Positions 37,107 to 44,836 of a stretch of DNA of 64,000 nucleotides are shown here, in pieces. Location: contig JAFDDA010000001.1 of the NCBI GenBank assembly GCA_019311105.1, forward strand, positions 325-64,324, read 5' to 3'. A program made the translations under genes and the position numbers. Below the pieces are notes generated by a model. That model saw only the letters and a list, made by a program, of their open reading frames with translations. It was not told the origin of the DNA and made no database searches. How positions within the stretch are numbered: the first letter of the stretch is position 1; each line of letters starts with the position of its first letter. The DNA is from Deltaproteobacteria bacterium. GTDB lineage: Bacteria; Myxococcota_A; UBA9160; JAFDDA01.

Positions 37107-38939
37107 ATGAGCGAGTACGACTCCGGGTCTGGATCTGGGCGCAAGGGTTTCGTGCGGGACGTGATGCGGCGCATCACGCCGGCCAATCCTCATGATGAAG
37201 AAGGCAACCCCACGGGCGAGCCCGACCCGCGCCAGGAGGCCGACGATCTGCGCGACGCGATGAAGTTCTTCGGGACCGACTCCACGGAGTTCCGCCGCCG
37301 GCTCGACCGGCTGATGGCGGAGTTCGAAGCGCTGCGACGGCGCTACGAACTCGTGCGCGATCAGCACGCCGATGCCGAGCGCCAGAACGAAAAGCTCGTC
37401 GGCACACTTCAAGAGGCGAAGCAGCAGATCGAACTCCTCAAGGAGGAGGTCGACAAGCTCTGCGCCCCGCCCAACAGCTATGGGATCTTCCAGCGGGCGA
37501 ACAAGGACGGCACGGCCGAGATCGTCATCGACGGCAAGCAGATGCGCGTCAACGTCCACCCGAACCTGGACCCGTTCCAGCTCGAGGACGGCCAGCTCTG
37601 CGTGCTGAACGAGGCATTCAACATCGTCGAGCCCGCGGGCTACACCTCGCGGGGCGAGATCGCGACGGTGTCCGAGGTGCTCGAGGACTTCCGGGCCATC
37701 GTGCTGGGCCACACCGACGACGAACGTGTCGTGACCCTGGCCGAGCCGCTGCGTGGCGAGAAGCTCAAGGCCGGCGACAACCTGATGATCGACCCGCGCA
37801 CCCAGTACGCCTTCGAGCGGATGCCGAAGTCGTCGGTCGAGGAAGTCGTGCTCGAGGAGGTGCCCGACGTCACCTACGACGACATCGGTGGCCTGGAAGA
37901 GCAGATCGGCGTCCTGCGGGATTCGGTCGAGCTGCCCTACACGCACCCCGAGGTGTTCGCGGAGCACCAGCTCTCGCCGCCCAAGGGCATCCTGCTCTAC
38001 GGCCCTCCGGGCTGCGGCAAGACGCTGATCGCCAAGGCGGTGGCCAACAGCCTCGCCAAGAGCATCGAGGCCCGCACGGGCCGCTCCACGCCGGCGTACT
38101 TCCTGAACGTGAAGGGGCCCGAGCTCCTGAACAAGTACGTGGGCGAGACCGAGCACAAGATCCGTGAGGTCTTCAAGAAGGCGCGCGAGAAGGCGAACGA
38201 AGAGGTCCCCGTGGTGATCTTCTTCGACGAGATGGATTCGCTCTTCCGCATGCGAGGCTCCGGCATCTCCTCGGACATGGAGGCCACCGTGGTCGCCCAG
38301 TTCCTGTCGGAGATCGACGGCGTCGAGTCGCTGAAGAACGTGATCGTGATCGGTGCCAGCAACCGGCAGGATCTGATCGACCCGGCCGTGCTGCGGCCCG
38401 GGCGCCTGGATCTCAAGGTGAAGGTCCAGCGGCCGGATGCCAACGCTGCCCGCGCGATCTTCGCCAAGTACCTGACCGCCGATCTGCCCTTCCACCCCGA
38501 GGCGGAGCAGCAGTTCGGCAGCGACGGCGCGAAGATCGTCGATGGGATCATCCAGGAGACCGTCGACCGCATGTACAGCACCGAAGAGGAGAACAAGTTC
38601 CTCGAGGTGACCTACGCCAAGGGCGAGCGCGAGATCTTCTACTTCAAGGATTTCTCGAGCGGCGCCATGATCGAAAACATCGTTGCACGCGCCAAGAAGA
38701 TGGCCGTGAAGCGGGTGATCGATCACGACGAGCGCGGCATCAAACCCGAGGATCTGATCGCGGCGGTCAACGCGGAGTTCAAGGAGAACGAAGATCTCCC
38801 GAACACCACGAACCCCGACGACTGGGCCCGCATCTCTGGCAAGAAGGGTGAGCGCATCATCAACGTCCGCACGCTGATGACCGGCATCAGCCGGAAAGAG
38901 CGCTCGATCGAGGACGTCAACTCGGGGCAGTATCTCTAG
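37107..38939 (+). CDS. mpa: proteasome-associated AAA ATPase (Mpa/ARC)
   Basis: Coiled-coil N-terminus, OB region, Walker A GPPGCGKT, Walker B VVIFFDEMD and the C-terminal docking motif GQYL. GGAGAGG lies upstream of the ATG. Confidence 0.95.
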   Translation: MSEYDSGSGSGRKGFVRDVMRRITPANPHDEEGNPTGEPDPRQEADDLRDAMKFFGTDSTEFRRRLDRLMAEFEALRRRYELVRDQHADAERQNEKLVGTLQEAKQQIELLKEEVDKLCAPPNSYGIFQRANKDGTAEIVIDGKQMRVNVHPNLDPFQLEDGQLCVLNEAFNIVEPAGYTSRGEIATVSEVLEDFRAIVLGHTDDERVVTLAEPLRGEKLKAGDNLMIDPRTQYAFERMPKSSVEEVVLEEVPDVTYDDIGGLEEQIGVLRDSVELPYTHPEVFAEHQLSPPKGILLYGPPGCGKTLIAKAVANSLAKSIEARTGRSTPAYFLNVKGPELLNKYVGETEHKIREVFKKAREKANEEVPVVIFFDEMDSLFRMRGSGISSDMEATVVAQFLSEIDGVESLKNVIVIGASNRQDLIDPAVLRPGRLDLKVKVQRPDANAARAIFAKYLTADLPFHPEAEQQFGSDGAKIVDGIIQETVDRMYSTEEENKFLEVTYAKGEREIFYFKDFSSGAMIENIVARAKKMAVKRVIDHDERGIKPEDLIAAVNAEFKENEDLPNTTNPDDWARISGKKGERIINVRTLMTGISRKERSIEDVNSGQYL

Positions 38940-39066
38940 GCGCCTCGCATCTGGAAACACGGGGAGTTCGCCTGTCGGGCGGGCTCCCCGTCGCTTCCTG
39001 TGCCTCTGCGCTCTGGATGCAGCCCCGGGAAAAGGCACTATGCTCAACGGCCGAATCGGGGGTTAG

Positions 39067-43219: not shown

Positions 43220-43429
43220 CGGCGGCTCCTCGCACCCCCTCCCGTCCTGAGTGGTCGCAGCGGCGTTTCCATGTCAAATCGGGGCGTTTCGCCTCGCCTC
43301 CGGAAGCCCCTGAGAATGAAGGAGAAAACGGTCATCGACCGGTGGAAGTGCAACACTGGCGAAAGGTTCGCGGCGTTCCTGCCGATAGCGGAAGGGCTAC
43401 AGTGGTCCGGGCGGACCGGGTGGGGGCCT

Positions 43430-44836
43430 GTGCAGAAGCGGATTTTCGGGGTCGAGACCGAGTATGGGATCATCTTCACGCCCGAAGGGCGGAAGACCCT
43501 GCCCGTGGAGAAGGCGATCCGCTTCCTGTTCGAGAAGCTGATCACCACCGAGCACTTCCTGAACGTGTTCCTCGAGAACGGCGCCCGCTTCTACCAGGAC
43601 ACGGGGTGCCACCCCGAATACGCAACGCCCGAGTGCGCCGCGCCGCGCCAGCTGATCGTCTACGACAAGGCCGGCGAACGCATCCTCGAAGACCTGCAGA
43701 ACTACGCCGAGGAGAAGATCCGCGAGGAGCGCATCGCGGGGAAGCTCTCGATCTTCAAGAACAACACCGACTTCGTCGGCAACAGCTACGGCTGCCACGA
43801 GAACTACCTCGTGGACCGCGACGTCGACTTCTACTACCTCGCCGAGCAGCTGATCCCGTTCCTCGTGACGCGCCAGATCTTCACGGGCGCGGGCAAGGTC
43901 TTCCAGACCCAGGACGGCATCCACTACTGCGTTTCGCAGCGGGCCCAGCACATCTACCAGAAGATCTCGGGCACCACGACGAACGATCGCTCGATCATCA
44001 ACACGCGCGACGAGCCCCACGCCGACCGCGAGAAGTACCGCCGCCTGCACGTGATCGTCGGCGACTCGAACATGAGCGAGTGGACGAACTTCGTGAAGAT
44101 CTCGTCCTGCGCCGTCGTGCTGCAGATGATCGAGGACAACTACATCCAGAACGACTTCACCCTGCGCAACCCGGTGAAGGCGATCAAGGACATCTCCTAC
44201 GACACGACGTGCAAGCGCAAGCTGCGCCTCGACAACGGCCGTGAGTACTCGCCCATCGACATCCAGCGCGAGTATTGCGAGCTGGCCCAGAAGTACATCG
44301 AGCACTACCCGGTGAGCGACGAGCTGAAGGAAGGCGTCGTCATGTGGCAGTACGCGCTCGACGCGCTCTCCACCGACCCGGAGAAGCTCGCCGACAAGGT
44401 CGATTGGCTGATCAAGCGGCGCATGATCCAGAGCTATCTCGACAAGCGGGGCGCCACCTGGAACGACCCGCGCGTCTTCATGCTCGACCTGCAGTACCAC
44501 GACATCCGTATGAACCGCGGCCTCTACTACCTGCTCGAACGGCAGGGCGCGGTGGAGCGCGTGCTCACCGACGAAGAGATCATCAAGGCCAAGACCGAGC
44601 CGCCCCACGACACGCGGGCGAAGATGCGTGGCGAGTTCATCAAACTCGCGCGCCAGAACGCCATCCAATACGACCTCGACTGGTCGAACATCCGGCTCGG
44701 CAACCTGCTGAACGTCCGGGTGATCTGCAACAACCCCTTCGAGACCGACACCGAGAAGGTGGCCGAGCTCGTCCGCACGATTCAGAAGACGAATCTGCGC
44801 AAGACGAGCCTTTCGAAGCTGGTGATCCAGTCCTGA
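43430..44836 (+). CDS. pafA: Pup-protein ligase PafA
   Basis: It starts (V)QKRIFGVETEYG, colinear with the mycobacterial PafA N-terminus MQRRIMGIETEFG. Also NGARFYQDTGCHPEYATPEC, FKNNTDFVGNSYGCHENYL and IINTRDEPHADREKYRRLHVIVGDSNMSE. GTG start chosen by homology. Confidence 0.9.
   Translation: MQKRIFGVETEYGIIFTPEGRKTLPVEKAIRFLFEKLITTEHFLNVFLENGARFYQDTGCHPEYATPECAAPRQLIVYDKAGERILEDLQNYAEEKIREERIAGKLSIFKNNTDFVGNSYGCHENYLVDRDVDFYYLAEQLIPFLVTRQIFTGAGKVFQTQDGIHYCVSQRAQHIYQKISGTTTNDRSIINTRDEPHADREKYRRLHVIVGDSNMSEWTNFVKISSCAVVLQMIEDNYIQNDFTLRNPVKAIKDISYDTTCKRKLRLDNGREYSPIDIQREYCELAQKYIEHYPVSDELKEGVVMWQYALDALSTDPEKLADKVDWLIKRRMIQSYLDKRGATWNDPRVFMLDLQYHDIRMNRGLYYLLERQGAVERVLTDEEIIKAKTEPPHDTRAKMRGEFIKLARQNAIQYDLDWSNIRLGNLLNVRVICNNPFETDTEKVAELVRTIQKTNLRKTSLSKLVIQS

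Follow-up and report, generated by a model that had tools for sequence, protein, structure and literature searches.

A complete Pup-proteasome locus, probably functional and vertically inherited, in a large uncultured clade of Gram-negative Myxococcota

Bacterial proteasomes and pupylation are usually viewed as an actinobacterial speciality, complemented by a few stray transfers into other lineages. Here, we analysed a stretch of 64,000 nucleotides (nt) from contig JAFDDA010000001.1 of a Deltaproteobacteria bacterium (hereafter the window, to whose positions all coordinates refer unless they are prefixed by a locus identifier of the form Lnnn) and found that its positions 37107-44836 hold the six genes mpa-dop-pup-prcB-prcA-pafA, all on the + strand, as read from the list of open reading frames (ORFs) with refined starts. 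Judging from the genes themselves and from their conservation in related genomes, we consider it highly likely that they constitute an actinobacterial-type Pup-proteasome system that is complete, functional and vertically inherited within a large uncultured clade of Myxococcota.

The genes were assigned to families by means of NCBIfam equivalog models with curated cut-offs, and the Pfam matches are in agreement. The mpa/arc gene (37107-38939), encoding 610 amino acids (aa), scores 746 bits on TIGR03689 against a cut-off of 505, and dop (39067-40551) scores 595.3 bits on TIGR03688 (cut-off 492.3). The 66-aa product of pup (40591-40791) reaches 57.3 bits on TIGR03687 (cut-off 41.45) and 69.7 bits on PF05639, while the 20S beta subunit gene prcB (40904-41692) and the 20S alpha subunit gene prcA (41698-42396) match TIGR03690 and TIGR03691 with 280 and 304 bits, respectively (cut-offs 192 and 139). 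The last gene of the series, pafA (43430-44836), starts with GTG and obtains 546.6 bits on TIGR03686, for which the cut-off is 551.3; since this is 135 bits more than the 411.9 bits that it obtains on the Dop model, its product is clearly the ligase paralogue. On the strength of these scores, six equivalog-level matches in the canonical order cannot be attributed to chance. An earlier note on this DNA had listed the same six-gene locus, including the GQYL terminus of Mpa, the 66-aa Pup, the PrcB propeptide with its HGTTV context and a pafA that begins with (V), and all of these were recovered at the above coordinates; the mycobacterial gene order that it had proposed can be read directly in the window.

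Two of the starts deserve comment. The earliest ATG of the pup ORF is located at 40585, i.e. 6 nt 5′ of the chosen start, yet the spacing to a GGAGA sequence and the alignment with the N-terminal MAQE..GGGGG of Mycobacterium tuberculosis Pup both favour 40591, and hence a 66-aa protein that reads MAQEKKQKGGGGGG...YVQRGGQ and terminates in GGQ. PafA begins with VQKRIFGVETEYG from the GTG codon at 43430, and this start, together with the ~70 nt 5′ of it, is conserved with the closest relative of the window (L076).

Considering that a defective pup ORF or the loss of PrcB Thr1 or of the Dop or PafA aspartate would have spoken against such a system, these positions were inspected, and every catalytic residue checked is intact. 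Mpa matches Pfam PF17758, PF16450 and PF00004, corresponding to the OB_N, OB_C and AAA domains, carries an N-terminal coiled coil and aligns with M. tuberculosis Mpa (E 7e-194), with the Walker motifs and the pore loop, through to the terminal GQYL. Dop can be aligned with Acidothermus Dop (4B0R) over 488 residues (E 1e-158), the catalytic Asp90 being present in YVDHAHPEY and the Dop loop, WDYDQENPLADARGF, aligning to that of the Acidothermus protein. Residues 2-449 of PafA align with C. glutamicum PafA (4B0T; E 2e-102), and its Asp57, within FYQDTGCHPEY, corresponds to the catalytic Asp of that enzyme, which is changed from D to N in entry 4BJR; a Dop loop is absent, as the alignment of PafA with Dop begins only past it. 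Because the mature beta chains of Rhodococcus and M. tuberculosis in the PDB begin at query Thr49, right after HG, PrcB is predicted to carry a 48-aa propeptide cleaved between HG and TTV, with Thr1, Asp17 and Lys33 (mature numbering) all present. Finally, Pup aligns with its M. tuberculosis counterpart over the full length.

The same motifs recur in the other loci that were fetched for comparison (see below), where GQYL is found in 77/83, YVDHAHPEY in 83/85 and FYQDTGCHPEY in 65/68 cases, and the G-TT junction of PrcB in all. The C-terminus of Pup is more variable: among 84 proteins (from 80 Myxococcota loci and the other fetched loci), 45 end in GGE and 39 in GGQ. The earlier statement that a GGQ end defines the system was therefore too strong. 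Dop is kept in all of these loci despite the GGE-ending Pups, which is consistent with its role as a depupylase as well as a deamidase.

How the system would work can be outlined by homology to the characterised mycobacterial proteins, from which the enzymology given here is taken. Dop would convert the C-terminal Gln of Pup to Glu by deamidation, and PafA would activate the resulting gamma-carboxylate with ATP and couple it to lysines of the substrate. Pup would then be captured by the coiled coils of the Mpa hexamer, so that the tagged protein could be threaded through the Mpa pore, while the GQYL tails would dock in the alpha ring of the 20S particle formed by PrcA and PrcB, in which autocleavage of the 48-residue PrcB propeptide would expose Thr1 for substrate hydrolysis. 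In addition, Dop would take Pup off substrates. Regulation appears to be clade-specific and would operate through a ~0.8-kb non-coding region before mpa, which carries a distal sigma-70-like and a proximal sigma-54 promoter, both predicted. The predicted sigma-54 promoter implies control by some enhancer-binding protein, a mode of regulation that would be closed to Actinobacteria, as these, to our knowledge, lack sigma-54.

The host is evidently a diderm. The flanks encode LolA, Lgt, MtgA, PilT, a TIGR02266 PilZ protein, RecA, MreB and MltG, a diderm gene set, and the earlier argument that lolA, lgt, mtgA, pilT and the PilZ gene speak against an actinobacterial host is upheld, since these flanks were found and relatives labelled Myxococcota or Deltaproteobacteria share the block. 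With Dop as the query, a scan in which each GTDB species was represented by one genome yielded 201 species genomes with a Dop relative, and the best 80 of these 201, with Dop 73-86% identical, were fetched for locus comparisons. Nearly all of the 80 loci come from metagenome-assembled genomes (MAGs) whose titles read Myxococcota, Myxococcales or Deltaproteobacteria bacterium, with closed chromosomes among them. The isolate UBA9160 (L003) is presumably the name-giver of a GTDB class of Myxococcota. As far as the contigs reach, the block ssb-ftsK-lolA-gap-mpa-dop-pup-prcB-prcA-pafA is present in 80/80 loci, usually followed by mreB and mltG, and the lolA-gap-mpa and pafA-mreB junctions are the same in 80 independent assemblies, exemplified by the closed chromosomes OZ245817.1 and OZ245002.1. 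In the window, the genes 3′ of pafA encode a small membrane protein and then MreB, and, as previously pointed out, there are no pafBC-type regulators nearby.

Several lines of evidence support vertical inheritance of the locus under strong constraint. Its GC content (0.64) is slightly lower than that of the flanks (0.67-0.71), and this difference stems from the second codon positions, i.e. from amino-acid composition, whereas the GC content at third codon positions (GC3) of the six genes (0.87-0.95) equals that of the flanking genes. Between the system genes and 11 flanking genes, relative synonymous codon usage (RSCU) is correlated with r 0.984, comparable to the r 0.979 obtained between two halves of the flanking set. 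Thus, the comparison of composition proposed in the earlier note places the locus with its flanks in both codon usage and GC3. Identities measured from the window alone produced star-like, uninformative distances, and an all-against-all Mantel test was used instead: in 46 genomes, the pairwise distances of Mpa, Dop and PafA correlate with those of FtsK, MreB and LolA (r 0.67), a value reached by 0/2000 permutations. The mean p-distance in these genomes is 0.19 for the system and 0.31 for the housekeeping neighbours, i.e. the system evolves more slowly.

Individual proteins differ in this respect. Median identity to the window is 89% for PafA (taken over 57 loci), 82% for MreB, 78% for Mpa, 77% for Dop, 68% for PrcA, 63% for PrcB, 60% for FtsK and 45% for LolA, which makes PafA the most constrained protein of the neighbourhood, above even MreB. 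Considering that its identity to the C. glutamicum enzyme nevertheless amounts to only ~40% and that its score stays just under the equivalog cut-off, this pattern suggests that PafA diverged early and subsequently came under very strong constraint.

These observations bear directly on two alternative explanations of how the locus came to lie in this contig. Outside Actinobacteria and Nitrospirae, such systems have been described as sporadic cases, for which horizontal transfer from Actinobacteria is assumed (PMC3511204; PMC7947786), and together with the slightly lower GC content of the locus this might indicate that this one genome recently received a Pup-proteasome island from Actinobacteria, in line with the sporadic lateral acquisition pictured in the earlier note. 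We regard such an event as very unlikely. The GC dip originates from second codon positions, while GC3 and RSCU are flank-like; the insertion site is the same in 80/80 relatives and in the low-GC genome L084 (see below); the distances of the system co-vary with those of the housekeeping neighbours; and Dop shares 60-61% identity with its counterparts in Nitrospinota and L084, as opposed to 48-52% with the actinobacterial references. With 201 Dop-bearing species, codon usage like that of the flanks, co-varying distances and Gram-negative nearest relatives, the locus is not the product of a one-off transfer, and the earlier idea of sporadic acquisition is contradicted by the conserved synteny, the number of species, the RSCU correlation and the Mantel test alike. 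An ancient transfer into the ancestor of the clade is possible. As for an assembly or binning artefact, in which an actinobacterial fragment would have been fused to a Myxococcota contig, nothing but the unexpected taxonomy speaks for it, and the identical junctions in 80 independent assemblies (closed chromosomes among them) as well as the uniform composition across the junctions render it extremely improbable.

Some points weigh against a complete and functional system that is common to the whole clade. PafA is 4.7 bits short of the NCBIfam equivalog cut-off and, as mentioned, ~40% identical to C. glutamicum PafA. In the window, pafA is parted from the rest of the operon by an inserted PEP-CTERM gene, and no pafA promoter was found in the 43220-43429 interval. 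Moreover, the window and the 80 loci yielded neither rpoN nor genes for enhancer-binding proteins (recognizable by GAFTGA and ESELFGH motifs), so that the case for sigma-54 dependence is made by the promoter motif itself. The activity of the system is, for the entire clade, predicted from its genes, and these leave room for a non-degradative role of pupylation, which the tagging may serve instead. Nevertheless, the integrity of all six components and their retention across the clade lead us to favour a complete and functional, vertically inherited system.

The most distinctive feature of the locus lies upstream of it. The non-coding lolA-mpa region of the window (36290-37106, +) spans 817 bp, and in the 72 further loci containing both lolA and mpa the gap has a median length of 773 bp (range 506-1215); promoter motifs were counted in these 73 gaps. 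The gap contains three conserved islands (distal, middle and proximal) and displays no codon-position GC signal. In the proximal island, a promoter motif of the -24/-12, sigma-54 (RpoN) type, GGCACGCGCCTTGCA, is situated at 37027-37041 (+) and ends 65 nt 5′ of the mpa ATG. Defined as TGGCAC-N5-TTGCA, with 10 nt between the GG of the -24 and the GC of the -12 element, this motif is found in its strict form in 71/73 gaps and in a slightly relaxed form in 73/73 (window included), at a median distance of 62 nt from the ATG. Conservation around it is limited to the GGCA and TTGCA blocks, with unconserved flanks, and the strict motif has just 13 further matches in 2.9 Mb, counting both strands. Further upstream, in the middle island, ~380 nt 5′ of the mpa ATG, a sigma-70-like promoter motif, TTGACA-16-TATTTT, is located at 36724-36751 (+). 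The general form TTGAC(A/C)-N16/17-TAnnnT occurs exactly once per gap in 66/73 gaps, including that of the window, and in all but one of these it begins with TTGACA. We infer that both predicted promoters are used. The outgroups L082 and L084 possess sigma-70-like sequences 5′ of mpa, but no sigma-54 motif.

The distal island corresponds to a conserved element of ~160 nt, which was identified with nhmmer in 51 loci (L003:7367-7536 and 50 others), always on the + strand, just 3′ of lolA and 540-700 nt 5′ of mpa. Its consensus is TGCCGCAAAGTTCGGCG ... GTCAAAAT.GCGGCAAC ... GGCGGCACC-N5-GCA. The window carries a degenerate copy at ~36480-36578 (+; limits approximate), which was recognized by eye with pattern-match support and ends in a sigma-54-like GGCA-N8-GCA (36564-36578). 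The element may serve as an enhancer, or it may be an additional, weak sigma-54 promoter.

Alternatively, the conserved upstream sequences could constitute a structured regulatory RNA, either a leader or a small RNA, instead of promoters. The conservation of the ~160-nt element, the long potential leader (~350 nt) and a hairpin U(U/G)CCC...GGG(A/C)A, with changes in alignment A1 that look compensatory by eye, fit this possibility. We consider it improbable, however, because RNAalifold finds no consensus structure in A1 (-1.9 kcal/mol, zero compensatory pairs), no Rfam family matches the gap in the window or in five loci (nor the ~160-nt element), the leader folds no better than shuffled sequence (z-score -1.54), and conservation is limited to blocks that fit the -35/-10 and -24/-12 spacing. 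Helices drawn by hand for the ~160-nt element were discarded, as L009, L010 and L012 contradict them in A1. The gap holds no tRNAs either. An ORF of 274 codons that covers it (36286-37110, +) and overlaps the mpa start by ATGA was dismissed as a chance ORF, given that it has no coding signal and that the part of the gap it spans is unconserved in sequence.

Outside the clade, the next group of PafA proteins is 62-64% identical and includes L082 and L084. L082, which owes its Nitrospinota label to a cluster mate at ≥90% identity, shares the six-gene order in a different genomic context and encodes the closest proteins found outside the clade (Dop 60%, PafA 64% and Mpa 61% identical to those of the window); its Pup comprises 99 aa. 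It also possesses a third paralogue of the Pup-ligase family (L082:14639-16006, -; 455 aa, 62% identical to L082 PafA), located 3 kb 3′ of the operon amid folate, Fe-S and peroxiredoxin genes. L084 (GCA_037446715.1, L084:101-21386) is a MAG of 40% GC, in which the six genes again occur in the same order. Here, the synteny with the window is wider (ftsK-lolA...mpa-pafA-mltG-ruvX...HEAT...cinA-recA-pilT), with no mreB after pafA, and the 0.8-kb gap is replaced by a MiaB-like radical SAM gene, a DksA/TraR zinc-finger gene and a small ORF, of which no remnants were found in the window or the loci. RecA of L084 is 66% and the system proteins are 51-64% identical to those of the window.

Compared with these Gram-negative relatives, the actinobacterial references are more remote. 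Window Dop is 60-61% identical to the L082 and L084 proteins but 52% and 48% to the two actinobacterial Dop structures, and window PafA is 64% identical to its Gram-negative relative versus ~40% to C. glutamicum PafA. In addition, the C-terminal half of Pup, EIDEVLEENAEEFVKNYVQRGG[QE], is identical in the window clade and in the L084 and L082 lineages. Within a comparison that includes three labelled actinobacterial references, these protein identities point to the system being a member of a Gram-negative branch of the family.

How old this branch is can be answered with less confidence. It is conceivable that the Gram-negative systems (those of the Myxococcota clade, the L084 lineage, Nitrospinota and others) represent an old, separate lineage, which either goes back to a single very early actinobacterial transfer that spread among diderms or is equally old as the actinobacterial one. 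The roughly equal distances (60-65%) between the window, L084 and Nitrospinota, with the actinobacterial references farther away, the identical Pup C-terminal halves in three diderm lineages, and the ftsK-lolA...mltG-ruvX...cinA-recA-pilT context shared by L084, whose RecA is about as similar (66%) as its system proteins, are all in agreement with this scenario. However, the actinobacterial references numbered just three, including the divergent C. glutamicum PafA; the compared set contained no labelled Nitrospirota or Acidimicrobiia sequences; and, in a library of representatives at 50% identity, which returned 6603 representatives, the nearest was 59% identical and unlabelled. On balance, we give this scenario not quite an even chance. 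Somewhat more tentative still is the broader proposal that an uncultured Myxococcota lineage of class rank has the system as an ancient core trait, and that this system belongs to a Gram-negative branch shared with Nitrospinota, is no recent offshoot of any actinobacterial group and, in Myxococcota, has been rewired under the control of sigma-54 and an enhancer-binding protein. The vertical inheritance within the Myxococcota clade, which we favour, is held with far greater confidence.

The gene order of Pup-proteasome loci has been described as rigidly conserved in a review (PMC3511204), and the locus described here resembles the mycobacterial and actinobacterial system in having the same six components in the same order. 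Its Pup can be aligned with mycobacterial Pup from end to end, with MAQE...GGGGG at the N-terminus and YVQ(K/R)GGQ at the C-terminus, and both systems share the GQYL terminus of Mpa, the Dop loop that is present in Dop and absent from PafA, and the PrcB propeptide followed by Thr1. The differences concern the host, a diderm myxobacterium, the absence of pafBC beside pafA, the compactness of the operon, in which no genes intervene between mpa and dop, the predicted sigma-54 and sigma-70-like promoters, the limited identity to the actinobacterial references (48-52% for Dop, ~40% for PafA) and the GGE end of Pup in about half of the clade.

Among the cases recorded outside Actinobacteria and Nitrospirae, draft genomes of Nitrospinae and Proteobacteria have been mentioned (PMC3511204; PMC7947786). 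With the Gram-negative loci, namely those of Nitrospirota such as Leptospirillum and of Nitrospinota (here L082), the window shares the six-gene order and the identical C-terminal half of Pup, whereas L082 differs in its genomic context, its third ligase paralogue, its longer Pup and the sigma-70-like instead of sigma-54 sequence before mpa. In 2008, Iyer, Burroughs and Aravind reported that the myxobacterium Plesiocystis pacifica and Rhodopirellula encode Pup together with a ligase of the PafA family; the ligase of the Plesiocystis type bears a four-helix transmembrane insertion, is linked to a membrane protein and is unlinked to proteasome genes (PMC2588565). The combination of Pup with a PafA-family ligase in a deltaproteobacterium or myxobacterium is common to both, but PafA of the window is of the soluble type, with residues 2-449 aligned without a transmembrane insertion and with linkage to mpa and prcBA, and on these grounds a membrane-anchored ligase of the Plesiocystis type was ruled out.

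A further system to be compared is UBact, a homologue of Pup that Lehmann et al. reportedly described in 2017 from Gram-negative phyla, among which Myxococcota are not known to have been listed. Both systems feature a tag of the Pup family encoded together with homologues of Mpa, Dop, PafA and the proteasome in diderms, whereas the tag found here lies above the cut-offs of the Pup models and has a GGQ end of the Pup type. No publication was found in which a complete system is described as conserved among Myxococcota.

Contrary to the usual view of an actinobacterial speciality, a complete system is thus fixed, strongly constrained and syntenic in the 80 species genomes fetched from Gram-negative Myxococcota (201 contain Dop relatives), which widens the natural range of bacterial proteasomes and provides a large comparative set for studying their origin. 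Because public MAG annotations already carry these proteins as Pup--protein ligase, PafA2 family protein or proteasome accessory factor, the advance concerns distribution, evolution and regulation and not mechanism. What is added is the clade-wide vertical inheritance in a diderm phylum, the affinity to other Gram-negative systems and the conserved sigma-54 motif. The locus also displays a different regulatory solution, with tandem sigma-70-like and sigma-54 promoter motifs and with pafBC not beside pafA. If an ancient Gram-negative branch and rewiring by sigma-54 were both confirmed, regulated proteolysis would be linked to a starvation or developmental signal, and the account of actinobacterial origin followed by sporadic transfer would become testable in hundreds of diderm genomes. 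In practice, work on the system is limited by the organisms being uncultured.

Three lineage-specific additions to the system had been proposed in the earlier note, and they fared differently: the 0.8-kb upstream region holds up as a clade-wide gap, whereas the PEP-CTERM gene and the coiled-coil membrane protein do not, the former having no homologue in the 80 loci, closest relative L076 included, and the latter, encoded 3′ of the locus, occurring in L076 only. Being unconserved, neither was accepted as belonging to the system. The PEP-CTERM gene (42413-43219, -), which separates prcA from pafA, encodes a secreted protein with an N-terminal signal peptide and the sorting tail VPEP-TIAGLLGLAALAGLAVA-RPRRP, in which a hydrophobic helix follows the PEP motif and precedes a basic cluster; on TIGR02595 (cut-off 16), the 50-aa tail alone scores 19.3 bits and the whole protein 14.8 bits. 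Its GC3 is 0.90. In L076, prcA and pafA are 110 nt apart, and a homologue of the ~70 nt that adjoin pafA is still present in the window, from which it follows that the gene was inserted 5′ of this segment. The gene is an unrelated, genome-specific insertion.

The prcA-pafA junction (42397-43429 in the window) is a recurrent site of such insertions, although most genomes have only ~40 nt there. In L007 (13351-14345) and L014 (5131-6175), the inserts encode a sugar-phosphate isomerase-like protein with a TAT signal, that of L045 (13308-14238) contains an unrelated ORF, and that of L062 (13392-16361) encodes a protein with a MYXO-CTERM-like tail. In the window, an 11-nt direct repeat, GGCCTAGGGCC, is present at 42390-42400 and 42410-42420, 20 nt apart, the first copy containing the prcA stop codon and the second that of the convergent PEP-CTERM gene. 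The repeat could be an insertion footprint or a coincidence. Finally, a HEAT-repeat protein with weak NblB/CpcE-like matches is encoded at 49084-51033 (-); its gene is conserved 3′ of mltG-ruvX in many loci, and the protein bears a short acidic tandem repeat, DRPDAPDEEE, in three copies.

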